Positions 7,401 through 37,419 of a DNA stretch of 37,419 nt are shown here, in pieces. The DNA comes from Dimargaris cristalligena (Eukaryota). Numbering within the stretch: the stretch's first letter is position 1; each line of letters begins with the position of its first letter. The translations under genes and the position numbers were made by a program. The stretch spans positions 1-37,419 of the forward strand of contig ML002367.1 in NCBI GenBank assembly GCA_003614675.1. Reading direction: 5' to 3'. The notes beneath the pieces were generated by a model, which worked only from the letters and a program-made list of their open reading frames with translations, did not search any database and had not been told where the DNA came from.

Positions 7401-7900
7401 GGTTAGTTGGACAGATAAAAACTTTGGGGATGATTAAAGCGCTGGGGAGTGAATAACGGTGGAACTCGAACACACGGCTCCAATGGCAACACGAATTCCA
7501 AGGTGAGGTCTTCGGATCGGGTATAGGACTAGAAATGCCTTGGGCTCAGCCACTATTAAAGGACTAATATCGGAGTGTAAAGTAGCGTAGGTATAAAGGC
7601 ATATAATAATAACAATAATAAGTTCAATAAAGCCCACGATTAACCAAGAATGAACTGGAAGATGAGTGAAGGCTGGTAAAGGCAACGGATACACTGAGCT
7701 ACAATAGAGAACCACCTAGTGTATAGAGACCAAGCGGGTGGTATCAAGGGTGTTTTCTTGGCTCTGGAGTTTGTTTTGATTTGGGTCAATTCTTGACCCA
7801 CTCAGATGTCTGCAACTATAGAAAGGAAAACAATCCAAAATGCCCGTGCCACTAGGCGAGATTATAGGGGTATTATAGTGGGAAATACGGGTTGATAAAG

Positions 7901-13055: not shown

Positions 13056-16000
13056 TCACCGGCGGGGCAGTCGCGAGCTCACCTTGTTGGTTGAATTGAT
13101 GAGCGGCGACTTGGGCAGGGGAATCTTGGCCGCCGTAGTGATAGATACGGTACCGCCGTTCTGTACTGTCGTTCGACCATACATGGGTGGCGGCATGGTC
13201 CGATCACCACTGTTACCGCCACTGGTGCCGAGACGGGAGGCCGACCGGAGTCGAGTATGCTTGGGACCGGAGTAAGTCGATGCGTGGTTAGAGTGCGTCA
13301 GATGGCTTCCACTGGTGTGACTATCGAAATCACTGCTGGTGTCGGACATCGCCCCGGTCGAAGGGAAGGTGGGGTCCAATTTGGGCAAACTGGTCGAATG
13401 GGAAATTGTAGCGTACGATACAATACGCTTGGATTTCGAGTTGCCACGGTAGGTAATGTCAGCCGAGCGCGCACTCATGGAACTGGCACAGCGAGGCATG
13501 AGAGGGCTCACCGAACTACGTGGGTTTCCGAGAGTCGACGTATCGTCGTCATGATCGTGGTCGCGGTCGTGATCAGGGCTTACCACGGGTGTGCGGTTGG
13601 TGTCGGCATCATCATCCTCATCCTCCGCCGACCCATCCACGGACATTTTCTCGGATAACGGCGAAATAGTACGAGAGAGGCACAGCGGGGACACTCTTGG
13701 ACTACCGGATGAATCCGTCAACAAGCGAATCATATCCTGGGCCGTCATGCTAATAGGCCGTTCGAGTCCCTGTTGTTCATAGTACTCCTGTAGCAACTTA
13801 TCAGCATCGGAGGTACGGCGCCAGCTTTGGGTGTAAGAGATTCGGCGCTTCTTGGGCGTTTGGCCGGTTCGCTTGAGCTCCTGGATATCCTGGGTCGCCA
13901 ATCGATGCGAATTTTCCGCTATAGTAGTAATCTTTCCGCTGGCATTGACTGCAAACCCTTCAAAGGCATTATCCAGGCTGCTGGTTGTTTCCTGCACGAA
14001 TAGGTCCTTTTCCTTGATGGCAGTCGCGACTTGATCCATTTGGGTCGCGGCGGCTTCTTGAGTGCACTGGGCAGCTTGACGGACCTGCTGACCTAGTTCA
14101 ATTATTTGGCCCCGTAGGTTTACTCCAGCCTGGCCAACCGAGAGGTGGGCCTCTGTGACCTGGTGTAGGGACGAAGGTAACGCTGTCACGTAGGCATTGA
14201 ATGGTTCGGCTATAGTGGTTTGAATACTGTCGCGGTGGTGGGCAAGGGTCTGCTGGACTGTCTCGACAGCCTGGTCCGTCAGGGTAGTAATACCAGTCTT
14301 GAATTGGCCGTGATCATTCAGGGCTTGGTCCCCCAGGGTAGCCACTGCGGCGACCAGCACCGCCACTTGGCCCTGGTGGGTTTGACCAAAGGCATGCAGA
14401 CCAGTTCGGTGGGTGTGTTCTTGGGACTGTAGTGACTCCCATTGCTCATCCAGCTGCTGGCGGCGGGCATGGTTGGCCTGCATCTTGGACATGAATTCGG
14501 CCAGTAGCTTGCCCTCCTCAAGCTGGTAGGCCTGGTAGTCACCATGTAGCACCCGGATTTCGTCCGCCAGCTGCTGACTAGTCGCGACTGACGACGTGAG
14601 CGCCTCGGAAGTGGTTATGGTAAGTTGGTCGAGTCCTTGCCGTTGATCAGTAACCGCCTGCTGAATTCGGCTCAGCGAGCGTTCCGCCTGGTCGACAAGC
14701 GTGCGCGATTGCTCCAGGAAACGAGTGTGGAATGACTGCAGTTGGGTGGACAGGGCCGTTTGCGTCATATCCAACCCACTGGTAACCGTTTCGTGGGTGC
14801 TTTCCAAGGTAGCTTGAATCGCCTCCACGGTGGCCTGGCTCGCTCGCTCGTGCGTACGCAAATGCTCCAAGTGTTGGTCAACGTAGCCCTCGGCGTCACG
14901 GCTGTGACCTGAAATAACCTCCATGTGGGCCCGCAGCTCATCGAGATGGGTCCGCAATTTACTCTTCTCGTGCTCGGAAGTTTGGCGCAGTTCCTCTACG
15001 AACCGGGCGATGAATTCCTGCTGCAGGCCCTTGTAGGTGGAGATCTCCTGGTTCAGGTATTCGGTGCATTCTTTCTGGTGGGATTCGAAAGTGGCTAGGT
15101 GGGCCAAGTTGGCATTATCATTGTTATGGTGCCGCTCCACTTTGTCATGCAGCAGCCCTAACTCTTGGGCTACGTCCTTGATGGTCAGCAAAAGCCCCGA
15201 GGCCACGTCGTCCAGGTCGGACTCGGTGGTGGCGTGAGCTTCCGTTAGCAGTACTTGTTCGGTCAGGGATATGCGCGCCCGTTCGAGGTTAACCATGGCT
15301 GTCGTCAGGTTTTCGTTGGCGTTGCGGAGGCTCGTTCGCGTCTCACCTAACTCGACTTTGGTACCATTCAACTCGGCCATCAACTGTTTGTTTCGGTCCA
15401 AAATGTTGGCCTGGGATGCTTCAGCCCTCTCGAGTTTCAGTCTGATATCCGAGATCAGGTCCTTGTGACTCTGGTTTTCTTCCAAAATCTCTTGGTAGCT
15501 CTCACCGGACAAGTACACGCCATTCCTATCACGCGACGCCTATCGAAATCAAAAAGGAAGGAAGTTGACCACGGCCAATCCATCAATAACCCAGGTCGGG
15601 TCAAAGGGAATAATAGATTGAAAAATTAATTAAATTTGGGTTAGCAAGGCACCCTGTCAACAAACTCTGTAGGTTTCAAAGACTACCATGTCATTTGGCT
15701 TCGTCAAACAAATACAGACAAATTAGTATTCGGATTATACCCTGAACTCCCACTTACCTGCATATCACGTCTTAACCTTTCGATTTCCAGGGCCTGGCTC
15801 TTTACAAGGGTGTTATTGGTTATCTTCTGGTTCACCTCGGGCTTATTCTTGATATTCTTGGCCCGGCTGGCGTAGACTAGGGTACTTAGGGTTTCCTCCT
15901 GATCGGCTTTAGTCGGGGCGATGGTGGCGATAATGCTGGTTTTAGTATTGCCCCCTAGGGAGTCCTGGAGAAGCCGGGTTAGATTACTATCCCGGTAGGA

Positions 16001-17497
16001 GATGTAACTCGCGTGTTCCTCTAGCTGTTGAATAACCCGGCCCAGAGTGAGAAGACTGGTATTGATCTTGCCGGCCTCACGCGCCCGTTTATTCTCAGCG
16101 CCGGATCGGCCGATATTTTCGGACCCCGCCAAATCGACGAGGTTTAATTTGCCGAGTTTGAACACATCCTCGCCGTCGATGGTTGACTCCTTAACACTTA
16201 GAAATATCGAAAATATGGCATGGGAGCGGCTGAGGGGAAGATAAAACGCGGGTAAAAAATAAGGATATTGATGGACGTGATTACAAAAGGGTTAATAGAG
16301 GGCTAAAATGCAGCTCATACATAGCCGGTGTGCATAATCGGGTCTGGAGTCTCTGCAGTGGAGGTGCTAATGATATGGGAAATCCACCCATATGACTATA
16401 TCACAGGCCAGGTTGGAGACAGTGGGCTACATTAAAGAAGTGCATGTAAATGGTACACAGCGGGACAAGTGCTCAATGGGAAATACTTACCTAGATTTCT
16501 CATTGCACCGAGTAGCAGCCACCCGCCGTCGTTCTGAGCCCTTCTGGAGCATGCTAATGGCGGCCATTGCGCTATTGACGGATACCTCCTTGAGGTCCTG
16601 AACTTGTACGCCCAGCTTCTTATTGGAGTCCCGGCCTCCGTTTTCAAGACTGTGGGCTTGCGCCCCCCGTTTATTGGGGTCTTTACTAGGACCCTCGAAG
16701 ATTTTTAGCTTTTGCTGGGCGTCGTCGCTGAGCAGGTCGCGGAGTTCCTCGTTGTAGAGTTCGATATAGGAAAGACGTACGGTAAAATCGGCGCCGCCCT
16801 GGTCCAGGTAGTCGAAGAGGTAGAAAAGGGTGCGGGGGATAATCCCGGAGTCTTCATTGACCATACCATAGGTACAATCCAGGTCACCCTCCATGGTGTA
16901 AGTCTTACCCGTACCAGTCTGACCGTAGGCAAATAGAGTACAGTTGTAGCCTTTGGTGGTTTCGCCAATCAGTGGTAAAGCAACCTCTTTGAAAAGGTCG
17001 GACTGGTTGGCCTCGGGGCCAAAAACGCGATCATAGATAAAGGAACGACGCTGAGTGAAGTCGGTTGATGGTGCTTTTATGAAGATTTCCCGTTTTGACT
17101 CGGTGGGGATATTCACGACGGTGGGTAGACCCTCCCGCTGCTCGTTGTCATTGCGACCACTGAGTTAGGGGAGCATATGGATATATGTATGTGTAAGTAT
17201 ATGTGTGTGTTCATATAAGATTAGCGAAAGTACAATACTGGTGCAACACTGTAAGACTAATAATAGTTGCGGTTAATAAGTCAGACGCGAGCTGCAGACA
17301 CCGGGGCGATGGTTATTTTACAGAGCCAGGTGACTTGAAACCACCAGTTATGTACCAGCAGCCGGGCAGAGGCTGGGTGCAGCAGTACGCTCCCCCGCCT
17401 TCGGGGTGGGACAAGCGGAATATACGGAAATAACCTACCGGCAGCGGACAATCACCTGAATGTTCGCGTCCTTCTCTGATGAGGAAGGCGGCGGCAT
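13056..17497 (-). CDS. bimC: Kinesin-5 (BimC/Cut7/Eg5 family) mitotic motor, ~1227 aa
   Basis: Exons 17497-17439, 17159-16491, 16229-15758, 15539-13056 join in frame. Motifs [13 protein letters not shown]-loop GQTGTGKT, switch I NEKSSRSH (split by an intron), switch II DLAGSE with NIGRSGA, neck ...[10 protein letters not shown], long coiled coil, BimC box TGQTPKKR (~13845-13868). The exact start and stop are less certain. Confidence 0.93.
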
Positions 17498-19041: not shown

Positions 19042-21696
19042 ATGGGTCGAGCTTCCAAATCGGCTAACCCGGTCGACGAAGTCCGTAAGTCTAACTCGTC
19101 CCAAGCCACTGGGCGCGGAAAGAGTTCATGCATAGCTTTCCTACTCCATTACCTCTCTTTTTTTTTAGATTTCGACCCCATCTGCAACCCACCATGGTAC
19201 CCCTTTAACTCATTCGTTGATTATTTTGTGCTAATTCGCGATCTTAACCGGCGGCAAATTCAAATGCGCATGAAACTGGAATCTAGGTCGTAAACAACAC
19301 CAGCGCGAACTCAAAAAAGTACGACATTCCTTATAACTGTAAAAACACTGTTTGTAGAAACTAAACCATACATACCCACACACCACTTTTTAAGGGAATA
19401 TTTAGACGATACGGTAATGTTGAGTTTTCAGCTTCGGCTCAGCGGGGTGTTGCTAAGCTAGCCAGATGATATCATTTCTTGCCTTGCTGGGAAGCGTTCG
19501 AAATCTAATGTAGCCCCCCACACACTAATTATTATCTATATCATATTGGATGATCCGCAATGGCCCTGTCGTGATGAATTAGAATAAGAGCGAACGATCA
19601 AAGGCACGTCAGGATGCGTTACTTTACAAAGATACGAGTAAACTAGAGACCGAAATTCAACGCTACGCAGATTTAGGTAAGCGTCCAGTATTCTACATAT
19701 CCCTCTTTTCACCCACACCCCATTTTCTAACCCCCCCCCCCCCAAAAAAAATGGGAAGAAGTCGGTACATTTGGTTTACATGGTCCTCGATGAGAGGTGG
19801 TGGGGAGAGGGAGGCTTGCCAACCCGAAACCACCAGCATGGGTTCTATGGGTGAAGTAATCAAGTTCAGAAAAGTCTGGGATTGACAAATTATATATCAT
19901 GCTGACGTTATTTCATTATTACTAATTTATCATCTTGTAGAGCGACACGGCCGTTTGGATAAAAACCAGAAACAAAAACTCTCGGATTTGGAGGCCCATC
20001 TTAAGTCAATTCGCGACGCTCAACAGGTAAACAGCATATTACTGGATTGTGTCACAAGCGACTAGTCATTATTGAGAAGTCCAATATCCTTAGAAAAGTA
20101 TTCATGTCTGTATTCACATATATCTCATCTATAATTACTTATTGTACTATCTCATGACAATCGTCAATTCTAGACTCACGGCACTGGCAGGTAGGTTCTA
20201 TATTCTGAATATGACAGGTCATGCTGAATGTTGACCATTCGTTCTTGTAATTCAAGGGTACATTAACCAGGCCCCTATTGCACCCAAACTAAATTTTCTA
20301 CTTGACTACCTAATTTATAAATACCACTTCATATTGCCCCTTTAGCCCCTCGAGCCACCAGGATGGTCACCAGCTACGAGCGGTCGGTTATATCCCAGGG
20401 TATCTTAAAGACCCCCTAGCATCGGCCAACAACGATGCTGCCGGCCAAGACTTTGCTTCGGACTCGGATTCCAACGCCGCTGGCTCCGATGACGAGACAC
20501 CGGCAATTGAAATCGAAAATCTGAAGGATGAGTCAATGGTCCGCCAGCCACAGCCATATCCTGCCTCTGCAAATTCCGGGTACATCGGGCCCATCATGCC
20601 TCCCGGACCGTTTCCCGGCTCGATGGGCCGGCCTCCGTGGCCACGACCGGATGCATTAGGAGGGGGAGGGCCCCATCCCTACCCCTATCCATTCCCACCT
20701 CATTTACCCTTCCGACCTATACCACCACCCCATATGGTTTTTCGGCCGGGTATGCCCTTACCCCCCGGTGGTGGTTTGGGGCGAGGTGGGCCCTTTCCCC
20801 CCATGCCTCCTAACATGGCCCGACCCTGGCCGCCACTGGGAAGAGGGGGAGGTCCGCCCTTCCGGCCCCCTCCCTCATCAGCAGCGGCGGCTAGCCCACC
20901 CATCGGAGGTCATCCACCAACTCGACCACTAGCGGCTAACCCCAGGCAGGCCGAGTCGCGGCCCTCCCGGGGAAAGCCTAGACCACCGGTCGCATCATCC
21001 GCCACCCCCAAGATCGCCTCCAACCCCACCGTGCTGTCGTCAGCCCCCGTAGCCAGCGATTACCAAAAGGACTTGAAAACCCTGGTCCCCCAGTCGGTGC
21101 TTAAACGCCGTCGACTGGAACGTAAAACCCAATCGACGACAGCAATCAGTCACCCTACCATGTCCGAAACGGAACTAAACGCCATCCAAACTGCCCCGGT
21201 TACCATCCGCAGTAGGGCTTCGAACTTCCTTCAAAACACCGAGGCATCTACATCGGCATTGGCATCGCCAGCGGTGGGGACCGATACGAGTACAGTAGGA
21301 ACCCCAGTGCAATTGGCCGCTAACAGGTCCCCTGCCACCGCTACGGGACAATTGCCGTTTAGTGTGAAAGGTTCCACCGTGATGAAAACAACCACAACGA
21401 CCACGACCACGGCCATGCCCACTTTAGCAGCAGGGGGCAAACCCTCGTGGTTGGCGGAACTTCAGCGGCGACAACCTAACGCGCCCGACTGGAAGAAAGC
21501 CAAACCGAATCCACCACCATCATCAACGCCCCCTCCACCACCCCCTCCACCAGCATCCGCTCCATCACCCCCTCCACCGCCGCCAGCTGCCGAGCAGAAT
21601 GAGTCGAGTCCGGCCCATCCGCCCGCAAAACCAACCACCAATATCGCGGATGAGTATGCTAGTTTTATGGCGGAAATCCAGGATTTGATTGATTAG
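19042..21696 (+). CDS. WBP11: WW domain-binding protein 11 (WBP11/Saf1-like splicing factor), ~540 aa
   Basis: Exons 19042-19084, 19287-19318, 19583-19676, 19941-20026, 20174-20190, 20346-21696 join in frame. N-terminus MGRASKSANPVDEVRRKQHQRELKKNKSERSKAR is Wbp11-like; Pro-rich middle; LSSAPV...LVPQSVLKRR; terminal DEYASFMAEIQDLI typical of WBP11. Confidence 0.88.
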
Positions 21697-21908: not shown

Positions 21909-22052
21909 AAATGAGCGAGATTCCACTGGGCTATATATTGAAAAATCCATTGGATGAAGTAAATTCCACTTTTTGAAGGTGAATATCCCGCCTGTTATCC
22001 CATACACATAGCATTTAATACCCTATACAGCGGGTTCGAATTTTGCCCGTAT
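21909..22052 (+). mobile_element. MITE-like element, family copy (subtype B)
   Basis: Core AAAAATCCATTGGATGAAG...TTTTGAAGGTGAATATCCCGCCTGTT...CATTTAA...ATACAGC closely matches 28825-28914; degenerate terminal inverted repeats. Confidence 0.72.
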
Positions 22053-23322: not shown

Positions 23323-25420
23323 TTACTGACTGGAATTGCTGATTTGATGTAAAATTGCAGTGGGAGTATCTTGGATTTGGTCATCATTCGGAGCTGGCAC
23401 CGATTCGTCCAACATCAATTTGAGCTGGTTGAGATATTCCGGCTTCAGTCTGGGGGGGAAATCGCTGACATCCATCGTATCGGTCTACTCAAATCTTACA
23501 TCCGATGCCTGAATTAATTCTTCGGAATTGAATTCCGGTGCGAATGCCAAAAGGGCCATTTGGTTTTCATCGATGAGGCTTATGTGGGGCATATCAGGTA
23601 AATCATTAAGGTCACTGAAATCGGTTGGCGAATAATGGACCTGCGCCTCTCCCTCCATTATCGGACGTCCAACTGTTCCTCCGTCGCCAAAACCGGGGCC
23701 TGCCGCTTGATTACTCTCCCATGATCGGGAAAGTCTCCAATACGAGTCTAAAAACGCCGCTCCCTTAGGTAATGTAGCCATCTTCATGAGTTGTACTAAT
23801 TCCCATTTGGCCTTCTTCATATCCTTTGTTGCAATGTTTGAGCTGGGATCGGTATACATCGCAGTGAAGTGGGCTAGAGGTTCGGTTTGTTGAGCGACGG
23901 CCGCTAAAATAATAGCGAATCGGTTAAACTCGTGGTACTTTTTAAGGGCTATTTGTTCGGCTATGGTCACAGCTTTCACGATGGCCTCATTTAAAACTGT
24001 ATCGTCGACCATATTCTGAGCCATTATGCTATCCTGCGGTTTGGATTCGTACTCAGCATTGACCCTGGCCACGCTCTCAGCTACATATTTGTTGTTAAGC
24101 CACTGTTTCAAGCCGACCATAAAATCAACTGGATCTATAAGTCAATTGGTGGTGGACAGGCGTGTCATGATTACCGTTATGATACTCTCATAAAGATCGC
24201 TAAACCACGCCGATACTTCGATTGCATGCTCAACCGATTCAGGCAAAGATCTGTAGGGGCTTCCATGGATTGCCCATCTGGATCTAGGGAAAATTGGCCG
24301 AGTAATCCTTCCCAGTCTTTTCCATTGCGCCGGGGTCCAACCTCCACTATAAGACAGAGTCTTTAACAACGGATTCCCTAAAATACTCAACACCTCCGTC
24401 AACTCCTCACCATTCCGCTGCAAGTCCACCAGGTCTAATAGGGGAAGCCGGGCTACAAAAACTGATTGGGGAAGTAAATGGGGATTGGTATACCGCCAAG
24501 TAACAGCGGTGGACTGGAAAAGGGGGTCGGCTTGGTTAGCCAAAAGGTATTGGTAGAAGTTGGACAACACATTTCGGCCAGTGTGCGGGTTAGGATCACT
24601 TCTGTCACCTTCGATTCTTCCAGCTGCAGAACTCAAGGTACGGCTGGCATCGATGAACAATTTAACCGCTCGGGGCTGGTTAACAAGCTGAATCCAATGT
24701 TGAAATGCTCTATGGACTTTCTGCTGGGAAATTTGCCCCGCCTCGTTCAATTCAAGATACGTTTTCAGAAACCTATATGGCCTCTATACGGCCCCATAAT
24801 TATAGAAAAAGCAGGAGGGGAGTGATGGACGGAGATAGTTCGAAAGCGGGTTAGGAGTGAGAGTCAGTAAATAGAATCGTCACTAGCCCAAAGGACATGT
24901 GCACCTCTATACCGAGGATAGATCCCCGGAATAGCGTGGGGAAAAGAAGATGCGGCGAGACCGTATTCCAACAAGTAGGCTGGGTTGCCAACAACCAGGG
25001 AGGTGCTGTGGCCCCCTTCAGCCTCACTTACACATGGAGCCACCAACATGGTAAGCTAACATCGAGACACTGATGCTGTTTATCCTTCCCATCGAACAAT
25101 ATTATCCCAACAATACTTACCTGCACCAAATCGGAAAGTAATTTGGCAACCAGAGCATGATTTCCACGAGATGTATAGGATAGGTGGTGGCGCGAAAGAG
25201 GTGAAAGGTATCCAAAGACTGCCTCCTTTTGTTCGAAGGGCAATTTGGCCCAGTTGTCTAGTTTTTCATCAGTAGGGTTAGGTTGCGCTCCAAAGTCGTC
25301 GTGACTGGGGAAGCCCATGGATAGACCAGGTGCTGTGGTGACCTTGGTGATGAGCAGACTGAGAGCTAGACTCGTAAATATAGTCCGCCCTATGTTACGG
25401 TTCACTCGTTGGCTCGTCAT
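23323..25420 (-). pseudogene. Signal peptide + F-box-like protein gene, ~586 codons, interrupted by two in-frame stops (pseudogene or unresolved small introns)
   Basis: Exon 1 is 25420-25121 (donor GTAAGT); the intron runs to the first AG after CTAAC and a pyrimidine tract (24784). One frame then runs 24783-23323, with TGA at 24144-24142, TAG at 23487-23485 and final TAA at 23325-23323. Hydrophobic N-terminus TIFTSLALSLLITKVTTAP, then WAKLPFEQKEAVFGYLSPLSRHHLSYTSRGNHALV. Confidence 0.62.
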
Positions 25421-25656
25421 AGTAGGGGGTTACTCGAAAGACTTGTGGGGGGATATGGAGTTGTTGAGCCGAGTGATAGAAATTTACCACCGGTACGTAC
25501 AATGAATGGGCAGCTGAACTAATATAAATGTATAGACGTAGATAAGCAAAATGCGCGAGGGTAAGAGAGGTGCAACACCAAATAATATCCGCAAGGTTTT
25601 AGGTCTATGCGAATGAACAAAAAACCTTCAAGCAGGGAAAGCATCTCGTATTTATG

Positions 25657-25664
25657 TTTTTATA
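25657..25664 (-). promoter_or_regulatory. Probable TATA box of the secreted F-box-like gene
   Basis: TATAAAAA on the minus strand about 240 nt upstream of ATG 25420. Confidence 0.4.
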
Positions 25665-26221
25665 AAGCACTGTAGGGCCAGTTAGAGGGATCGAACAAGC
25701 TGGCTGATATACGGGTTGTATTCAGAGTGAACCTCAGAGGATTACAGCCATTCCTTTTATTTGTTTTATTAATTTTTGCACCTAACTCTAAGCGCTAGGT
25801 ACTGTGGCAGTGCCTGTTTTGATGTTGAAAGCCAATATTAAATATTTTTAGTGAATATATAACAATAGAAATGCATCCAGTATAGGAATGAGGGTAACTC
25901 GAGAGTACCATGAGCCATGCACCTATACAATGTTGAGCTGGACAATGGAAAGGCAGAGGCTCTACCAATACCATTTGTTTTAGATGTAACATGATTTGGC
26001 TTTTTCCGCTGCTTATGTAGTACACCTTTGAATATTTGAAGGTCTGATACCATCTAATTGGCATTAGAAACCTTTTATGATTTTAAAAGGCCACCTGAAG
26101 GAAAACAGTGTCAGTGTAATAGTCCATAGGCCAGGTGGATTTGGGCTCATCTACAGTTATAAAAACCAGCAGCTCCCACTCCCTTCTCTGGAACAAGGAG
26201 GTTCACATCTCCAGTAGTTCC

Positions 26222-26383
26222 ATATGGGAGAAGTTCAGCCTGACTATATAGGGTAAAATCCATTTGAGCAGGCTGGCTTATTTAAGTTACACATTCATTA
26301 TTGGCCCTCCTAATCTGACCTAAATCTGGACTTAATGATCATCTACTCTTATTAGGCCTTATAGCACCATATTAACCCTCCCA
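26222..26383 (+). mobile_element. Diverged MITE-family copy
   Basis: Begins ATATGGGAGAAGTTCAGCCTGACTATATAGGGTAAAATCCATTTGAG; possible right end GCCTTATAGCACCATATTAACCCTCCCA. Confidence 0.55.
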
Positions 26384-26812
26384 GTCACCCCTGGTACTAT
26401 GGGATTATTATTTATTATATAACCCTTCTCCTTCCAGCCCCAATGCTTCACACAAAACACTTAACCTACTGATCCAAAGATTCTTCTGGTTCCCATGAGA
26501 GTCTTCCCAATATAAAGCCCACCTGGTCAGTCTATTTATCTATACCATAGTTTAGTAGAATCTCCCCTTAGGACCTCCCTTTGGAGCTGTCCCCACATAT
26601 ATAACTAGACCCCATCATGGACCGGTTCAATTCCTTAGCTTATTCATATTCCCCAGTTTACCTCAATAAACTCTATATATGCTCACCCCCTCATACTAAC
26701 TAGTAAGTGTGTCTACTGCACATCCCTTGCATAATCCCATCACCTAAGCCTTTATTGGTTAGTACTGTGCCCCCATCCTAATGCTAGTAGCCCACTTGGC
26801 CGAGTCTAAGCC

Positions 26813-26878
26813 CCACCTACTGTTAGAAGCCTATCCTCAGGACTCTTGATGGACTAAGAGTGGTTAACTTGGGCAACA
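26813..26878. repeat. Dispersed 66-bp repeat, copy 2
   Basis: Direct-orientation match to 114-179, with the identical core GACTCTTGATGGACTAAGAGT. Confidence 0.8.
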
Positions 26879-28647
26879 TTCATAACTAATATATTTTATT
26901 TACTTAGTAGTAATCATCATAGAATAGGGCTTGTTAAATTTATACTGATGATATACTATTGATTTACTGCCAGTTAACTCTGGGCCCCAAGCTATTGAAT
27001 GGGGTAATAGGATTGCAGAGGATTATCCTCTTTCAAACATAGTCTAAAGGTAATGGGGCCAACAATTGACTAGTAAATAATGATATATTCACTGAGCTGA
27101 AAGAAGTGGTTCTGGAGGCAGGTATGTTCTATTAAATGAAATTACTTACTGTTTATAAATGTTAAATACCAACAGTGACTGCTAAAAATAAATTATAATG
27201 GGCAAGTAGGGAAAATAGAGAACTGCCAGAAGAGCATGCAACAGCATCATTTCAACCCCCAAAAATACACATTTCTATTATGCTAGGCTGCAATTGGGCA
27301 CCTACATTATTGCATTTAGTACTAAGCTGGAAGTGCAAAGGTGGCAGTCAACTGTCCTGTCCTTTAAATAACTGCTGGAAAGGAAAGTTTCCAACTTTTA
27401 CTCGCATACATAACTAAAGGGATATGTGGTTTTGAGGGCGGGCATCCCTTCAAACACAGGCCTATTCCCACTCATTGATGGCCTCGACTTTAAGCCAGCC
27501 AGAATACGCAGCCCTGTATTGCCAATTGACACTACAAATGCACTACGGGGATGCATAAGTTCAGGTATTTCGACCATCATTATAAACTCTGTAGGTAATT
27601 TACGATTTGTAAATTTAGTTAAAGCGGGCTTAAAAACTATTTAGCGTTTTTAATTTCTTGCCAAGTTACTTCGGGCACAACTTCCTCTAGCCTAATATAC
27701 ATATGTTAATAATATGTTGGTACTATAGAAATGAGGGAGGGGGTCAAATGGGCTGGTCCATCGTTAATCTAGATTAATTGTTGAGCAGAATCATGATTAA
27801 TTGATCAATATGGAAGTTAATCGGCCAGGCGATTTCGCCGGCTCATTTCTTGAACAGAGGGGACGTAGTATGGAGCTACATCGAAGGCAAACGGGTGACC
27901 CGATTAGTGCATTATGAAGACAGGAGAAGGGGGGAAGGGAATAGAGCGAGCAATCTGTCCATAAGGTATAGCCAGAAGAACCCCACGAGAGAAACCAATA
28001 GATACGAAGTCGATTGATCTCTTTGAGAAGCAGCAGCTCAATTTGTATTACAATGGCGTGGCCCCGGACTCGAATGCCAATCCCGTATTATGCTACGCTA
28101 AAAGCAAAGCTTACTCGACGGATAAACTTATAGGTGATTTGCATCGACGGTCTGTGGGGGCTGGGACGTGCCTGCCATGTGTACAGCTACTCGAGCAGAA
28201 GCCAAAAGACGGGTGAGAAGCAGTGTATTTTATGACCACCCCCCCTCCCAGTTGGCTCTAGGATGTCGGGAGCTACCCACAGAGATTGGCGTGATAGCAA
28301 TCCCTTTGTTTTATTTTAAAAAGCCGGAGTGGCGGAGAGACACGGGGATGTTAGTATATATTATGATGGTTGTTCACCCCCAATACATTGGGAGAAATCC
28401 CTTGAGACTGTAAGTATGGTGCTCTGAGACCCGACGAGTTTAACGGTGCTAAATAATAATAGGGGGCCTACTTAGCTCAGCCTACCACCCGATTGCCAGA
28501 CATCTATTTTTAAACACCCTCAGACCGCGCCTCGCTCCTAATCACTATCCCACACAGCATTTATAGTCTACTTTATCTGCACACCCATTATCACCCATTG
28601 CCACTGGCCTACATTGAGAAGTTTATATATTTGTCTACCCTACGTTT

Positions 28648-28793
28648 TATATGGGTGGAATTCGGCCCAGCTGTATAAGGTCTTAAATGAAATGTGTACG
28701 GGAAAATAAACGGGATGTTTATTTTCAACCTGTAGTAATTGCCTCATCCAACGGATTTTTCGTTATACGGCCTGGTTGAACTCCTCCCATATA
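28648..28793 (-). mobile_element. MITE-like element, best-preserved copy (146 bp including flanking TA)
   Basis: Terminal inverted repeats TATATGGGTGGAATTCGGCCCAGCTGTATA / TATACGGCCTGGTTGAACTCCTCCCATATA (23/30 complementary), TA at both ends, no ORF. Confidence 0.8.
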
Positions 28794-28933
28794 GAAAAAG
28801 TTCCACCATGCTATATATACCGGAAAAAATCCATTGGGTGAAGGAAACACTTCATTTTGAAGTTGAGTATTCCGCCTGTTTTCCTATACATACGCCATTT
28901 AAACCCCAATACAGCTAAGCCAAATTTCATATT
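28790..28933 (+). mobile_element. MITE-like element, subtype B, abutting the previous copy
   Basis: Colinear with 21909-22052; shares the TATA at 28790-28793 with the neighbouring copy. Confidence 0.68.
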
Positions 28934-29644
28934 ATGAAAGCCGCGGATTTATCAATGCTACCGACTGGGAGGGTGCCAATAGATCTTTCAGATTAATTTG
29001 GGCCGGCGGGTGATTAAGTGGCCAAATGTCCCATCAATTCACGAGAACAGGTAGGCGGAAACCCTCGAAACGGGAATATAGTCGAATCAGTCCTCCATCC
29101 CAGAAGTGACAGTTTTTCTGATTATTTATTAATCTATTAATCCGCAATGGCGGATCGTTAAGGATGACTCATTAAATCAGATTAATCATAAATTCCTAAG
29201 TCTAGAAGAACTATACCCAGTTTTTTTAAAATAATAATAATAAAATAATAGCCTTGGCGGGTATAGTGTCCGTCCGTCTGGTAATTTAAAAGAGCAATAA
29301 TGAAGTACGAATATGCATTTCCTGGAATGGTGGCATGACTAAAATACAAATGCTGAGAGGTAAGAATAAAGGAAACGGATAAACGATTTTTTTTAAATAA
29401 AAAAAACCTAAGAGAACGAGTGATTCATGCATAGGATAAAACATAGTGGAAAGCAAGCAGTCTAGCTACTAGGCGTACTTTTCAGTTTGCGAATGTATTA
29501 AATAAACGTTGGTCGGTGGATGGAAAGTATGGATGGCACTGGTCAAGAAGATAAACCCAACTTTCCCATTCCACCTTCCAACCAGCTCAGGGGTCCCCCC
29601 CTCCTAGTAATACTCTGACACCAGACCCATTATATTTCCACACA

Positions 29645-32600
29645 CTAGATGCGGCGGGAGACCCCAAAGATATCGCTTTGCGTTACAGAGTGTCGAGGCG
29701 AAAAAGTCGGAGACCGCTGACTGGCCGATACGGCAGGTTCCGTGGCTTCCCGGTGATGCCGGAAGAAGCCCGAAAAAGTACCGGATTTACTTAAAGGTCT
29801 GGGGGATTTTAAGCCGAAAAATAGGGATGGGGAAATACTGCGATTCCCCGGTCCTTCGCGGTCGCCGGTGTCATCAGCGAATGAATTCGTGGCCATGGTG
29901 GAGAGTTTGGGGGATGATGCGGCGGGGGTAGGCAAAGTCCTCGAGTGGACCTGCGTCTGTGATTGAGACTCCGAACCACTACTGCTACCATGGCGGGTAC
30001 TGTCGACAGTGGTAGTAATGGGAAAAGACTTGGCAATCGGCCCGAAATCGGCGGCGTCCAGGTCAGGGAACCGGTTTTCGATATGACCTCGAAGGTGTCG
30101 GTTGAATTTGTGGTGATTATCGATCATGATCATGTGGCCCGATCCCTCCATCAACACAAAGGGGCTATTCAGGAGGAGGGATAGGGTGCGGCCACAGGCC
30201 ATTCGAATGACTTTGTCTTTGGAACCGTGCATGACCAGGGTCCGGGCCCGCGTTTTGCCGAGCTTATGCATCTGCCAAAGGTTGAGATTATGCCACCAGG
30301 TCGCCTGCATTTGTTTCATATCGGCTTCTTGGCGGAGTTTGCTTTCGCCGGGTTCGTGCTTGAAGGCATTGAATGCCTAGGGATTGCGAAAAAATAAATA
30401 AGTATTAAGTATCGTTAATATGTAGTAATAAAATGGGATGGGCGGTCAGTAAATTCGCCCCGATAATACGAGAGCGAGATACAATAGGTTAATATGAGCT
30501 AGAGGATCGGCGAATCCATCCACGGGATGCCCCGGGTCTATATCCAAGAACTTACCGTCATGAGCATTTCCCGGTTGGTATGAGTGGAATCCTCGGTATA
30601 GGGACTATTGAGCCACTTCTTGGAGAAGCACAGTTTCAAAAGGTGTTCAGTAATTTGATCGCGCGAACTAGTAAAACTCTGTAGAAAATACCGCAAATCG
30701 CCGATGGTGGGCATAGCGAATACAGCCGAGTGGTAGGTGCTAATTAGTGTGGCCGATTCAAACCGGTCTCCGTCCAGCAAGAGTACCTTCTGGGTGATCA
30801 TGCCACCTGTTGAAGTAAGCCAGTGGGCATGGAATATAAAATAAATATTAACCAGATGTGTGAGCTAATATGCCAAGTAATGCTATCCGCGTTGGTAGCC
30901 CCAGAAAAATCGATTAAGATTCAACCAATTAAACGGCTACCCAATGAACCAGTTGATAATAATTTGGCGTTGACAGTATACATGTTTTTTTAAAAAAAAA
31001 CACCCCTACCTAATGATACCCCCGCGATATGGATGTCTTTTTTCCAGCCGAGATGATCTAGCAAGTCCACTGTATCCTTGGCGAACATGGAAATGCTGTT
31101 ATTAGGTGTTGGTAAGAGTAATCAATAGTAATACTGGTCTGTTAGTACATATTTTTCCGAGGACGTCATATACATTAACGGATCCATATAAAGAAGGTAG
31201 ACCATAAGAATGCTGACAAAGCCTTGCCAGGCGGCATAGTATAATATTTGCCCACCTAAGTTGAACCTACCTAAAGTTGCCCCCCGTGATCTCGCTTTTA
31301 CCGATGCCCCGGTTATCGAAAACACAGACTTGATAATCCTCCAGGTGACCAAAATATTCCGTCTGGGCGGTGGTGGTGATGAGACGAATTAAGGAAATTG
31401 GTGTCCAGTACAAATCCAACGTGGGTTGATCCGGGCGATAACAGAGGGGGTTTTTTTTTTTGACAATAAATAAACATCCATGGTCGACAAATTTGGATAG
31501 GGTTAGTATCTATGTGATGCGATTCGAGAAGCGCGTGATTCATAGGAACTCATCAACCGGGCGAATAGAATTCGCACACGCCCTTTCCTCCCTCGTGGTG
31601 GGGATAAACAAAGTAAGAAAGAACGAAGGTAAGGAGCAGACCAAAGCCAGCTCAGTGAACAGGACATTATCCTGCCGGAAGGGCCACCGAATGGAGTAGG
31701 GCTATGCACCCCCATGAGGTAAGCCACCACAGTGGGTTCAACGAATGGGGGAGGGGTACCTGCCCCTGACTAGTTTCGGGAATAAGGAATCTGCATAACG
31801 ACTGCCATACGCCCAGCCAGCTCTGCTACGAAGAAAGGGAGAGAGAGAATGTTTAGCTTGACTCACCTGTAATTTCCAAAAGGCCGACGTAGAATTGAGC
31901 CCTAAGAATATGGCAATACAGTAAAATAGGCCCGTGAAATAGTGCAATTACAATTGTCGAGTTAATAATACGTGGCTTAGAGCCCGGCTAAGGAATGGAT
32001 AACTAATAATGACAATAATAGCCAGACCCCGCCACCGCGAAAGAATTCTTGACATGAGGGTATTGTTCACCAGCCGAAACAGGATGCTTTCTAGAATGTG
32101 CCAAGAATTACATTGCGCCACATAGTTACGGGCATTTTCTTCACAAAACTGGCGGATGACACACCCATACAGTGGCCACGCTGACCGGGGAGGACACTTA
32201 CCCATAATCAGGATAATTTTACGAGGCCCGGTGCCGTGCAGTTCATAGTAGAGCCGGGCCGGCCGCTTGCGTTTAGGGTTTCCCGGGAAGAACCCCTGTT
32301 CGTGTAGGGTGGTGCTTACTTGCGAGTCAAAGAGCCGCTCGAGGGCCTCCATAGACGACCGCAATTGGGGGTGCTCCTCCTCCGATGCGGCATTGCCGTC
32401 GGGACTGGAGGGTGGGGAATCGTCGGAATCGGTGGTGGGAGACTCACTCGAGCGGGGCTGAATTAGGACTGGTGCTGGTTCGGAGGTAGCGGGTTGACTG
32501 TCTAGGGCCATCGACATGTGCCCCTTGCGACCGAATGACTGCGGTGGGGTAGTAGGGGGAGTGTCGGTTTGCGCACGATAGTTCTGGGGTGCAGGGGCCG

Positions 32601-32805
32601 GGTTCGCCAGGGAAACGGTTTGGGTGACGGCAGCGGTGGTCACCGACCGGGCGGTTGGTGGGGGCCCCCCCTCAAAGGTAAGGTTAGGGTTGGGGTTGGT
32701 GCCCCGTGGGGGGGAAGAACCGGCAAAGCTGGGAACCGTTGCTACCGTAAGCTGGGTCGTTCGCTTCCGAGTCAGGAACGGGGGTTTCATAAAGGCGAAC
32801 ACCAT
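29645..32805 (-). CDS. Alpha/beta hydrolase fold protein, ~599 aa, with long disordered N- and C-terminal extensions
   Basis: Exons 32805-32202, 31901-31867, 31362-31271, 31095-31010, 30806-30556, 30376-29645 join in frame. Motifs LYYELHGTGPRKIILIMGL, VFDNRGIGKS, nucleophile elbow GVSLGG (split by an intron), acid HGSKDKVI, histidine GSGHM. Confidence 0.9.
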
Positions 32806-32845
32806 GGCGGGCGGGTGGGTGGTAGTGGGTTTGGAATAGATATAA

Positions 32846-32850
<5 letters not shown>

Positions 32851-32878
<28 letters not shown>
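32851..32878. repeat. (TA)14 microsatellite in the hydrolase 5' leader
   Basis: Perfect dinucleotide run 45 nt upstream of ATG 32805; a second (AT)8 run at 33105-33120. Confidence 0.95.
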
Positions 32879-32879
<1 letters not shown>

Positions 32880-35465
32880 CGAGACAGCTCCGTCGCTAGT
32901 GGAATGGTCGGCTGGTGAGGAGGTGGGGCCTGCGGAGTCTATAGAAGGAAAAGTAGTGACGAAAAGGGACAGCCGAGCCAATGGGGTAGTGGTGAACTAG
33001 GGAAGAGCGCATTCAAGCAATCGGGGGCCATGCACTTAAAATGTAAAGGTTCGGTAGTAGGGGAAGGCAAACGAAACGACAGCCGGCTCTTGCCAAAGAG
33101 AATAATATATATATATATATAGTGAGAGTAGTGGGTTAAGCAAGGGGCAGGTAAAAAGAAGCTTAGGCCTTTTGGTTAAGGAGGCGCGGGGGAATAGTAT
33201 TCTATATATATGCTGAGGACTACTGACTGGGTCAGGGTTGGAGCTGTGCGTGTATGCAGCGGTGAGGCTAATCTTTGGATTATTTGGTCGCCCAATATGA
33301 ATAAAAAACATCCTTCCACACATATGCGGACCGGCCATTGCACAATAGCCCTCTCCTTTCTTTTCCTTCCCCTACGCGCGTATAAATCTGTTGTACAACT
33401 ATACAAATATATACCCTTATTTATACACACGTTCCTCGCCTCTTTCCGCTATTATGGAACACAGGTGGTGGTGGTGTATGTTTCCAAGGCAACAGTGATC
33501 CTCTCTCCTTTACTCGGCTAGCCAGTATGCTCACGTAATCAGTTGTTCCCCCTCCCATCATTTGCGGAACTCGTTATCACCATACTGCGTGGACTTCACT
33601 ACAGGTATATAGCATCTCTATTCGCTTGAATGTAGGCGTAGAAGTGAGAAAGAAAGAGAGAGAGAGAGAATCAACCTCTCTCCCCGCTGCGGTGTTCTTT
33701 GGGGAATCCTACACCGGTCTGATCACGTGCGTAGGCCCGGCTTTCACCACTGGCAGAAAAGGGGAGGAGGCCTATTTCAATCCATAATGCGTATGACACC
33801 TCCCCCCCTTCCTATCCTTAGTACACGGCAACATAATTACTAATAACTTAACTGGTGGCGGGTGGCTAAATATAATCCCCGCAAAGAAGACCTACGGTTA
33901 ATCTATTTCCCTCCATCCCCACTCATCTCATTGTATATATTTTTGGGGGATTTACCCCGGCCCTAACAAAACTAACGCGGTCTGCTGCCTGTCTGTTCCA
34001 GTCAATGGACCCCCCGAGATCAACCCCCCACGGCCACACGGAAAAATTGAACGTATCACCACCACCTTCTTCAATGATATAAACCTTGGCTGCTTGATTT
34101 CTTGGTCGAGGGACGGGAAAGGCCAAACGGCGTACTCGTGCTGGTACGGGCCATCGGTACCCACTGCTAGTCTTCATGTTTCGGTGGTCAACTTTTGGAA
34201 TCCAATCCCTTGATAGAAGGAGGCCAAGCCTGGTCATCTCATAGAGATTAACTAAAGACCCTCTTACTCAACCCGCTTGGCACTAAGTTTATCTTAATTT
34301 TCCACCGAAAACGGCTCCTTGGAATGTTCTACAGGTCACCTTGGATTCAAAAAGGGGCAACTAGTGAAGGTATTTTTGTAGCCCAATTATATCCATGTAG
34401 AAGAGACACACTATGTTGGAAACGACCGTAGAATTACAAAACGAACGAATTAACTGAGACCCAACCCATTATGGGTAGGTAGAGGCAGCTCCATCTATCT
34501 ATCCATTGGTAACTTTATAGAGCTCCAATCCAACCAACTTCGCTCGCCAATAAGTTAGGCCCCGCCCTGAGCTCCCCGAAATCGCTGGAGTTCTCGAGTC
34601 TGAGGGTACGGAATGGCCCCGTCCCGAATTTACTTCAAAAATACCCTATATATAATAAACTTGTTCAAAAAAGAAATTACTCCTCATGCATGCAGTACAA
34701 AAACTGCATGCTAACGAAGAGGCGGCAACACAAGATAGGGGAGCAGCTGTCAATCACGCATTACTAAGCACTGACCCTGAATATCGATGATCAGTGTGTA
34801 CTACAACTAGGGCCCCTACTTCCATTCCAGCCGGTCTCGGCGGTGACAACTGCTCCCCTTTCACTCTATAGCAAGGTCACCGTGGACATGGGCAGGTCAA
34901 AAACCACCCTAATAAATATAAAACTCCAAATAATAAATTAATGAATGTACACCCAACTCCGCGATAAGCACATTATCGACAGCAGAGACTTGGGGGAATT
35001 ATACCCGACGATTGTTAGTATTTTGCACCCAAGGGGGGCGGATGACATGAAACCCCATGTTTTTTTTAATGGTTATATAAAGTCAAAAGAGGTACACAGG
35101 CGGGAGGGGGTATCAAAATGGATAGATAGGTGAAACAATAATTACAAACCCAGTGTGTCAGAGAAAAGAAGATAAAAAAGGGGGGTTGAACCAACAGGCA
35201 TTGCGGTACCCAACTGATTGGTGCTAAACCATCAGCGTCATAATGAAACACTGGGCGATACATAGCCAAGCCAATGGGTGAGAAGCGGGACACCAGGCAC
35301 CACAAAGCTAGAGCACAGTTACCTTGTATTCAACGAATCCAAAAAAAAAACCCCCTCGGCAAAATATGGCCAAAGGCAATAAGCCTAGTCCCCCAGTAAG
35401 TCAATCCAATGTAGCCGACGCTGACCTGGACAAGGGGGCCTACATAACATTTAAGCAGGACACCA

Positions 35466-35590: not shown

Positions 35591-37419
35591 TTAACGGCGG
35601 TAATGGTCCCCACCATGCAACTGGTGCCATTGTTTAAAAAAGGTGGAACGCACAGGATCCATAGGCGATTTGAAATGCCGCAAGGCCAGTCGCCAGTCTG
35701 TCACACTGACGGGGCGAATCGCATCGGCCGACATGGTTAAGAGCTGCTGGGAATCCGCTATTTCACGAATAGGCTGGAAGGCCGCTTCTTTTCCAATGAT
35801 TTGGATGTCTGGGTAGGAATAGCCGCTCGTAAGTTCGACGAGATAGTCGATTTGGGGAGGGGTTAGATTGTGTGGAATGGAGGAGGCTTGGGGTGGGGCG
35901 GGATTAAGGGCGGCAGTGGAGACGGAGGTGGAAGAGCAGGACGAGGACGAGGGGGACGACTGTGGCGGGACGGCGGACACCGCCGTGCCCGCAATTGCTG
36001 AAGAAGGTGCGTTATTATGATGGTAGTGATTATCGGATCCCCGCAGGAGCTGCATAATCAAGTTATAGCGCATCATAAGATCAGGTAGAGGCAAGTACAC
36101 CTGGCCTAAAAATTTCCGTCGGAGGGTCTCTGGTATCAATTCGGGGCGGTTAGTGGCGGCCAGCCATACAACCGGAGGCGGTTGAATAGACGGCGAAAAG
36201 AATGAAGATGTATGGGTGCGTCTGATTGAAGGTGGGTGTTGAAAAAATGGCAGCGAGGCCGTTGAAGACCCATATTGATGGTGGGCCAATGTTGCCGAGG
36301 GAGTGAGATCATTTGAGTGTAGGGAGTCAGAAAACTCACCAGAATTGGGAGTCGGTGTATACAAAGAATGGCGAAAGGGGGATGTGGAGGGGAAGGGTTC
36401 CAGGGTGGGTACCAACTCAGTGGTCTGGGTAGTTTCGTCTAATAACCGTCCAAATTCAACAGACCAGTCGGCGCCGGATGTCACTGGTTGCATTGGGTTG
36501 TTACCATCACCACCGTTACCACCAGTGCGGCTAGTGGGGTGCAATAGAAAATCCAGGTCATCCCAGAACACCACCGACGGACTCATTTCGGAAGCCAAGG
36601 TCGATAAAGACTGCAGAAACAACGAGCGCTGTTCGGGGGCTACGTTGGCCCATACTCCTGGAGTAACGTGGAAAAAGGCACTGCGGGCCTGATGGGCAGC
36701 GGCTCGCACTAACAGGGTTTTCCCTCCGCCCGGAGGTCCGTACAGTAGCAGCCCCCGGGGCGGGGCACGGATGCCCGTAAAAAGATCGGGCCGGAGAAGG
36801 GGGAATATAACGGTTTCGCGCATAGTCTTTTTAGGGCCCTCAAGCCCAGCGATGGCATCCCAGGACATGAGCGCATAGGGCTGGAAGACGTGAGTTAATA
36901 TCCACCGCATAATCATCTCGTCGACGCCCTGACCCCGTAGGCGAGCCATGATTTCACCGGGACCCGGACGTTGCAGCTGTGTTGGAGGTGGCACATTGAG
37001 AGATGTCGATGATGCGGTATGTAAAAGGGGGCGGTCGAGGGTTGTCGGTTGGGCCAAGGGTGACTCGGGTAGGTGGGCGGGGGGTCGGAATTGAGAATGA
37101 ATGGGGGAAGGTGCCAGAACGGGTGCGGGGGAAGGTGAGGGCGAGGGTGACAGAGAGGGTGAGGATGAAGGGGGGCGTGGTGGGACAACGGCAATAGACG
37201 ATCGGTTCAAATTATTTGAATTGGTCTGGGATTGGCCGTCGGTCATTGAAATTGCGGAATCCGATGAACTGGGCGTCGTTGAAGCGGGCCGTGATATACT
37301 AGGACTCACTTTAGCCATGGGGTTAGTGGGGCGGCACGCAACCACGCCGCTTCCATTTAAAGAGTGAGTCGGAAGGGATTGTCGATGCTGACGAAATTCA
37401 ATCGGGGTAGTGGGAAGGG
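35591..37419 (-). CDS. Spastin/fidgetin-like (meiotic clade) AAA protein, 5'-truncated by the window edge, with degenerate catalytic motifs
   Basis: SWDAIAGLEGPKKTMRETVIFPLLRPDLFTGIRAPPRGLLLYGPPGGGKTLL, AATNRP, LTSGYSYPDI...KEAAFQPIRE and a Vps4_C-like end (IRPVSVTDW...FKQWHQLHG). The frame stays open upstream of the listed GTG to the window end. Confidence 0.88.
   Translation of the reverse strand, partial: LPTTPIEFRQHRQSLPTHSLNGSGVVACRPTNPMAKVSPSISRPASTTPSSSDSAISMTDGQSQTNSNNLNRSSIAVVPPRPPSSSPSLSPSPSPSPAPVLAPSPIHSQFRPPAHLPESPLAQPTTLDRPLLHTASSTSLNVPPPTQLQRPGPGEIMARLRGQGVDEMIMRWILTHVFQPYALMSWDAIAGLEGPKKTMRETVIFPLLRPDLFTGIRAPPRGLLLYGPPGGGKTLLVRAAAHQARSAFFHVTPGVWANVAPEQRSLFLQSLSTLASEMSPSVVFWDDLDFLLHPTSRTGGNGGDGNNPMQPVTSGADWSVEFGRLLDETTQTTELVPTLEPFPSTSPFRHSLYTPTPNSGEFSDSLHSNDLTPSATLAHHQYGSSTASLPFFQHPPSIRRTHTSSFFSPSIQPPPVVWLAATNRPELIPETLRRKFLGQVYLPLPDLMMRYNLIMQLLRGSDNHYHHNNAPSSAIAGTAVSAVPPQSSPSSSSCSSTSVSTAALNPAPPQASSIPHNLTPPQIDYLVELTSGYSYPDIQIIGKEAAFQPIREIADSQQLLTMSADAIRPVSVTDWRLALRHFKSPMDPVRSTFFKQWHQLHGGDHYRR

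Follow-up and report, generated by a model that had tools for sequence, protein, structure and literature searches.

Takeover of the host ubiquitin system by parasite F-box proteins is established in bacteria and viruses and has been proposed for a gall midge. Agrobacterium VirF is a translocated F-box effector, and we know of no cellular F-box protein with a signal peptide. In the Hessian fly, Mayetiola destructor, the SSGP-71 proteins combine a signal peptide, an F-box, and leucine-rich repeats (LRRs) and, according to the accessible part of the report, have been found to interact with host Skp; in some members the F-box has been lost, and the proteins are proposed to mimic the F-box proteins of the host (PMC4617103). 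The same source states that the effector RipG7 binds SKP1-like proteins of Arabidopsis (PMC4617103). Here, we describe a gene of the fungus Dimargaris cristalligena whose first exon encodes a putative signal peptide followed by a divergent F-box-like domain. The window analyzed is an entire contig of 37,419 bp, and the gene is located on its minus strand. We tentatively read the whole locus as a decayed copy in a family of secreted F-box effectors acting on the Skp1-cullin-F-box (SCF) ligase of the host, an account that we consider possible rather than probable. D. cristalligena is a biotrophic mycoparasite according to the accessible part of its genome paper (PMC6784888), which bears out the guess in an earlier note on this DNA, made from the sequence alone, that it might come from a mycoparasite.

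The interval flagged in the earlier note (25420..25121, minus strand) is one whole first exon of 100 codons, and the sequence quoted there is identical to the translation of the minus-strand open reading frame (ORF) that opens at ATG 25420, with an upstream stop three codons before it. Exon 1 closes at a CAG|GTAAGT donor (boundary 25121/25120). The gene is predicted to have two exons, 25420..25121 joined to 24783..23323, and the intron of 337 nt between them (24784..25120, phase 0, GTAAGT...TATAG) was placed by a gap-free junction alignment with the paralog P0015. The same GTAAGT donor is used by two kinesin introns in the window (~217 and 259 nt). Exon 2 (23323..24783; 487 codons), delimited by tblastn with the paralogs, encodes an all-helical C-terminal domain and ends at TAA 23325-23323. 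ATG 25420 was taken as the start because a public model of the locus in a second assembly (P0023, H4R33_003056, 439 aa), beginning with MTSQRVNRNIGRT, starts there and because the alignment of the paralog P0011 to the window gene starts at residue 1.

Residues 1-30 read MTSQRVNRNIGR, TIFTSLALSLLIT, and KVTTA/P. The signal-peptide-like leader (residues 1-29; 25334..25420) was delimited by hydropathy and by the aligned leaders of nine paralogs. Its n-region carries R5, R8, and R12, and TIFTSLALSLLIT forms an h-region with a 13-residue core. With a best 12-residue Kyte-Doolittle mean of 2.15, the leader was the most hydrophobic of 21 ATG-initiated ORFs of at least 100 aa in the window (its own ORF included), among which the 90th percentile was 1.45; the best 19-residue mean was 1.29. 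All statistics on N-termini given here refer to the 10 loci with a complete N-terminus, the window gene counted. A short hydrophobic leader was present in all 10, with best 12-residue means of 1.37 to 2.57 and best 19-residue means of at most 1.51, and since these 19-residue means are low, the leaders lie below a typical membrane span. In the window copy, cleavage would likely occur at VTT|AP and produce a mature N-terminus of APGLSM. Indeed, paralogs have AxA-type sites before AP (ATA|AP, ASA|AP, and TCA|AP) and share the mature start AP[GS][LI]SM. The sequence features thus described (a basic n-region, a hydrophobic core, and VTT/AP) are those that had been read as a secretion signal in residues 1-30, the hydrophobic leader is kept at 10 of 10 loci, and on these heuristic grounds a cleavable signal peptide for the endoplasmic reticulum (ER) is a well-supported prediction. 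A mitochondrial presequence was considered for the family as well and was rejected, because several of the paralog leaders have no basic residues.

The leader is followed by an acidic spacer (residues 30-56; 25253..25333), recognized by predicted disorder and by a motif common to P0011, P0015, and P0005. In a structural model of the exon-1 product, the predicted local distance difference test (pLDDT) value was below 50 at residues 32-54, as expected for a disordered spacer, and in an AlphaFold2 (AF2) model of P0015, residues 1-49 were detached from the rest, again with a pLDDT below 50. Directly after the predicted cut, at least four paralogs have AP[GS][LI]SM and then [HR]DDFD. This conserved stretch, AP[GS][LI]SM...[HR]DDFD, might serve in uptake or as a signal for processing.

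The F-box-like domain (residues 57-100; 25121..25252) was delimited by sub-threshold Pfam matches and by structure comparisons. Residues 57-91, which read WAKLPFEQKEAVFGYLSPLSRHHLSYTSRGNHALV, had been noted to fit the F-box pattern, and both Pfam F-box models indeed align to this stretch of the window copy in register, an agreement beyond chance, although with scores below their curated gathering cutoffs. PF12937 matched residues 57-90 on profile positions 1-34 of 47 (E = 0.096; 12.9 bits; cutoff, 24.3), and PF00646 matched residues 59-93 on positions 3-37 of 43 (E = 0.12; 12.8 bits; cutoff, 20.5). A match to these two profiles had been suggested as a check; the window copy stayed below both cutoffs, whereas the paralog P0005 exceeded that of PF00646 in the homologous columns (22 bits versus 20.5; E = 1.4e-4). 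The label "F-box domain-containing protein" is attached to three paralogs in UniRef. The positions named in the earlier note are conserved in the family: L60 is present in 10/10 sequences, P61 in 9/10, E63 in 8/10, and I or V at position 68 in 9/10, followed by R77 (7/9) and S/N84 together with K/R/Q85 (9/9). Of the other core positions, L64 is present in 7/10 sequences and L80 in 7/9. When exon 1 was compared with the PDB sequences by phmmer, there were no matches at E ≤ 10, and in the ESM Atlas, exon 1 gave weak leads to F-box clusters at 0.88 and 0.84, under the bar of 0.9.

This sequence evidence is weak, though coherent; comparison of predicted structures pointed more clearly in the same direction. 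When the exon-1 model was aligned to 48,161 PDB representatives with VIA-align, the nine best matches were all F-box domains (Fbw7, FBXO42, FBXL17, FBH1, FBXL2, Legionella AnkB, Cdc4, FBXL5, and Skp2), with Z values of 4.3 to 5.9 over model residues 50-100, and more F-box chains followed at lower scores. With Foldseek, about 15 F-box proteins were among the matches listed, with a root mean square deviation (rmsd) of 1.0 to 1.9 Å over 32 to 41 columns; examples are FBXL5 (1.0 Å over 34 columns) and Skp2 (1.3 Å over 35 columns). The AF2 model of P0015 had a pLDDT of 73 and a predicted template modeling score (pTM) of 0.75, and the blocks that cover residues 51-100 averaged 81-91. In this model, residues 46-101 matched the F-box of FBXO42 with a Z value of 6.5 and an rmsd of 2.8 Å over 56 residues (VIA-align). 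As judged from these models, members of the family are predicted to have the three-helix F-box fold, and a structural match to the F-box, on which the earlier proposal depended, was thus obtained.

The family was collected by a HMMER search with the last 218 residues against 1.84 billion representatives at E ≤ 1e-3. This search returned 13 proteins, the query's own protein included, and the other 12 were all named D. cristalligena. The family comprises at least 13 paralogous loci, counting the window gene, whose members are 28% to 57% identical to the query, and on the basis of sequence searches, it has so far been found in D. cristalligena only. Its members have a common architecture: a leader, an acidic spacer starting with AP[GS][LI]SM, a divergent F-box, and an all-helical domain of ~400 residues. 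Paralogs that share the leader and the L-P-x-E core, a family such as the earlier note would have predicted, are present in the genome. Three loci are represented by N-terminally truncated models only (P0010, P0014/P0002, and P0016/P0004), which may reflect either additional decay or faulty annotation. P0010 and P0013 have consecutive locus tags (BJ085DRAFT_33160 and 33159) on a single contig of 42,247 bp and so appear to form a tandem pair. With exon 2 or exon 1 as the query, word-indexed homolog searches returned only P0001, the JGI (Joint Genome Institute) model of the locus itself, and a word-indexed search with the family alignment, in which the 8,000 candidates sharing the most words were scored, returned only P0003, the second-assembly model of P0015. 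Within the window, tblastn with the 12 paralogs as queries gave no second family copy.

In the literature searched, we found no publication that links D. cristalligena with F-box proteins, and no paper on secreted F-box effectors was found under those words, nor did the papers searched contain localization data; supplementary secretome lists may include the proteins described here. The term "F-box" is absent from the main text of two comparative papers (PMC9866270 and PMC9391592) and from the accessible part of the main text of the genome paper (PMC6784888).

The C-terminal domain has ~400 residues and is all helical apart from two short strands. It contains the conserved motifs PLLALVD, MARLSTTxRF, FNRxAxxLAAVAQ, LPKGAxFL, and HLTDDNQM. 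No Pfam family was detected in this domain, neither in the window copy nor in the paralogs. With the full P0015 model, Foldseek found nothing at E ≤ 0.001 and returned only generic armadillo or designed repeats, with template modeling (TM) scores of 0.10 to 0.18. VIA-align likewise gave only generic helical repeats for the helical domain (Z ≤ 7.1, within the helical background of the tool), and the ESM Atlas gave no usable match for the C-terminal part. No relative of the domain was recognized in these searches, which used the domain within the full model and not folded alone.

The window copy is interrupted by two in-frame stop codons. The TGA at 24144-24142 (codon 314 of the spliced frame), evident from the paralog alignment, falls inside the most conserved motif of the family, M[AT]RL[SA]TTxRF; of 12 paralogs, 10 have R opposite to it, one has K, and one has L. 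The TAG at 23487-23485 (codon 533) is followed by 53 further homologous codons, and identity to P0015 in this part is 15/48, including LKPEYLxQL. Single-frame tblastn matches cross both stops: residues 94-508 of P0015 aligned to 24777-23398 (E = 7e-88), and residues 1-252 of P0014 aligned to 24168-23401 with 54% identity. Since two nonsense codons are found amid continuing homology to the paralogs, and without a frameshift, the window copy probably represents a young pseudogene or, at most, a gene for a truncated product of 313 residues. Such decay would be expected in a family whose copies are gained and lost over time. Of the unrecognized C-terminus of ~480 aa described in the earlier note, the lack of a recognized relative held, whereas the intact frame did not.

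Both public models of the locus skip the TGA by means of an intron with a non-consensus donor, G|GTTGGA...TATAG, and both end at the TAG. P0001 (433 aa) has two tiny upstream exons in place of the first 16 residues and contains three very small exons (18-24 nt). Judged by the paralog alignment, both models look wrong, and the G|GTTGGA intron hides the in-frame TGA. The questionable segments are 24138-24342 and 25032-25644. The pipelines behind P0001 and P0023 are independent, because the N-termini they chose differ, and since both avoid the TGA and end at the TAG, both stops are probably present in the second assembly too.

If the TGA were spliced out or read through, or if the 313-residue product were active, the window copy would still be functional. 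In line with this possibility, its 587 codons contain no frameshift, one single-frame tblastn match spans both stops, identity to the paralogs persists past the stops at 20-31% (9/44 to 15/48), and spliced models were proposed by two annotation pipelines; moreover, a 313-residue product would still include the leader and the F-box together with one half of the helical domain. The TGA is followed by C (TGA CTT, 24142-24147), and TGA followed by C is generally regarded as the leakiest stop context in eukaryotes. However, the donor G|GTTGGA contrasts with GTAAGT in all three other donors of the window, splicing there would remove ~68 conserved residues, including the MARLSTT motif, the TGA stands in place of an Arg retained in 10 of 12 paralogs, and it is difficult to account for two separate nonsense codons other than by decay. 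A functional window copy is therefore improbable in our judgment.

For the family as a whole, the effector reading is plausible on the features described above. Its members would enter the secretory pathway, leave the parasite where it meets its host, and arrive in the cytoplasm of a Mucorales cell. There, the F-box would dock on the Skp1 of the host, while the helical domain would recruit a host protein, leading to its SCF-dependent ubiquitination. Since the proteins join a secretory leader to a domain that has cytosolic Skp1 as its sole known partner, the cytoplasm of another cell makes most sense as the site of action; to our knowledge, no SCF exists in the ER lumen or the extracellular space. 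The mycoparasitic lifestyle and a private, divergent family with decayed members fit this reading. The mature parts contain 0-7 cysteines and 0-4 N-glycosylation sequons, and these low contents may hint faintly at a cytosolic function. A fuller version, in which this private secreted F-box family enters Mucorales cells, docks on Skp1, and marks host proteins, with AP[GS][LI]SM...DDFD as the uptake or processing signal, appears rather unlikely.

Several observations weigh against an effector function. The signal-peptide call rests on a hydropathy heuristic and on conservation among the paralogs. In the Pfam scan of the 10 sequences with an N-terminus, one passes, the window copy is sub-threshold, and the 8 others have no F-box match at E ≤ 10; the window copy has Q64 where 7 of 10 family members have L. 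The family profile retrieved no F-box chain from the PDB at E ≤ 10, the single match being 2m0n_A at chance level (E = 0.24) in the PLLALVD region. Every F-box match in Foldseek had an E-value above 1, and the confidence of the exon-1 model was low (mean pLDDT, 58; 65-69 in the F-box part). The VIA-align Z values of 4 to 6.5 are under the level that the tool calls safe, and they are modest because the domain has only ~45 residues. The AF2 models may in part echo the sequence motif. Finally, the C-terminal motifs are better conserved than the F-box, contrary to the target-binding surfaces of effectors, which usually evolve fast.

These observations could be accommodated if the proteins were secreted, or resident in the secretory pathway, and their F-box-like helices were vestigial or convergent and did not bind Skp1, so that the helical domain would act in the extracellular space or the ER lumen, unrelated to ubiquitin ligases. 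The leader conserved at all 10 loci with an N-terminus, the missing or sub-threshold Pfam matches, the PDB search with the family profile, and the position of the best-conserved motifs in the C-terminal part would all be expected in that case. However, the invariant L-P and the hydrophobic spacing agree with an F-box, the nine top structural matches were F-box domains without exception, P0005 passes the Pfam cutoff, and the scarcity of cysteines and glycosylation sequons is atypical for extracellular proteins. We regard this explanation as somewhat unlikely. If, on the other hand, the leader were an uncleaved anchor or had no targeting function, the proteins could be substrate receptors of the parasite's own SCF that arose by lineage-specific expansion. 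The usual location of F-box proteins is the cytosol or the nucleus, and their lineage-specific expansion is common in eukaryotes. Moreover, the h-region has many Ser and Thr residues and no more than moderate hydrophobicity, and the leader of the window copy, with three Arg and no acidic residue before D41, resembles a mitochondrial presequence. Such a signal is unlikely for the family as a whole, given the leaders without basic residues, and the short h-regions and the AxA-type sites favor cleavage over anchoring. With its basic N-terminal side, even an uncleaved anchor would still place the F-box in the lumen, and the detached, low-confidence residues 1-49 of the P0015 model also speak against this explanation. 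A role as the parasite's own SCF receptors is thus unlikely, and an effector function directed at the host SCF is the reading that we tentatively retain.

The genes next to the locus are ordinary and encode MCM6 (4407-7433), a kinesin motor (~13059-17164), and an AAA ATPase (35591-37417). The ~4 kb upstream of the gene (25421-29600) has no ORF of at least 120 aa and a lower GC content (0.40-0.44). The earlier note had placed the gene in a repeat-rich, gene-poor island; the stretch is indeed gene poor, but its richness in repeats was overstated, as it holds only three short fragments of dispersed repeats, with copies in other intergenic parts of the contig, and no tandem repeats were found in it. 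The repeat pairs are 114-201 and 26813-26899, 978-1118 and 28652-28792 (inverted), and 21921-22031 and 28801-28915. These fragments of 89-141 nt, 76-80% identical, lie between genes in AT-rich parts of the contig and probably descend from a mobile element of unclassified type. Elsewhere in the window, the ORFs 20314-21693 (plus strand) and 31951-32895 (minus strand) are long, proline rich, and of low complexity and match no Pfam family, and a 12-nt tandem repeat, CCCCCTCCACCA, is located at 21529-21578.

The means by which biotrophic mycoparasites of the early-diverging fungi control their hosts have hardly been described, and in the literature searched, we found no description of F-box mimicry by one fungus against another. 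If the fuller version of the effector reading is true, E3-ligase mimicry between two fungi would have its first case in this family. The candidates on offer include at least three paralogs that look intact (RKP35785.1, RKP37172.1, and RKP38586.1), together with Skp1 as the putative partner and a new domain whose target can be sought. What is new at this locus itself is the presence of two in-frame stops in the flagged copy of the gene.

The cellular F-box proteins Skp2, Cdc4/Fbw7, and those of the FBXL and FBXO groups share with the Dimargaris family the pattern L-P-x-E-L...I...L...[ST]K and, in the predicted models, a fold of three helices that can be superposed on Skp1-bound F-boxes. In contrast to them, the Dimargaris C-terminal domain is not a WD40, LRR, Kelch, or other Pfam family, and the window copy scores under the Pfam cutoffs. 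Legionella AnkB, Ralstonia RipG/GALA, and Agrobacterium VirF resemble the predicted Dimargaris effectors in having an F-box in a protein that is exported by the parasite and uses host Skp1; indeed, the AnkB F-box was the sixth-best match to the exon-1 model (5k35_A; Z = 4.7; rmsd, 3.0 Å over 48 residues). These bacterial effectors differ in that they reach the host cell through type III or type IV secretion, whereas the Dimargaris proteins have a putative ER signal peptide, and in that they bind their targets by ankyrin repeats or LRRs. SSGP-71 is similar in three respects: it belongs to a eukaryotic parasite, its signal peptide is followed by an N-terminal F-box, and it forms a large lineage-specific family of paralogs, as far as the accessible part of the report describes it (PMC4617103). 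SSGP-71 has C-terminal LRRs, whereas the Dimargaris family has an unrecognized all-helical domain and its host would be another fungus; an interaction with Skp has been reported for SSGP-71, whereas for the Dimargaris family it is a prediction. Compared with the known cases of F-box mimicry by parasites, the candidate novelties of the Dimargaris family are a putative signal peptide for the ER, a receptor domain of a new kind, and a host that is itself a fungus.

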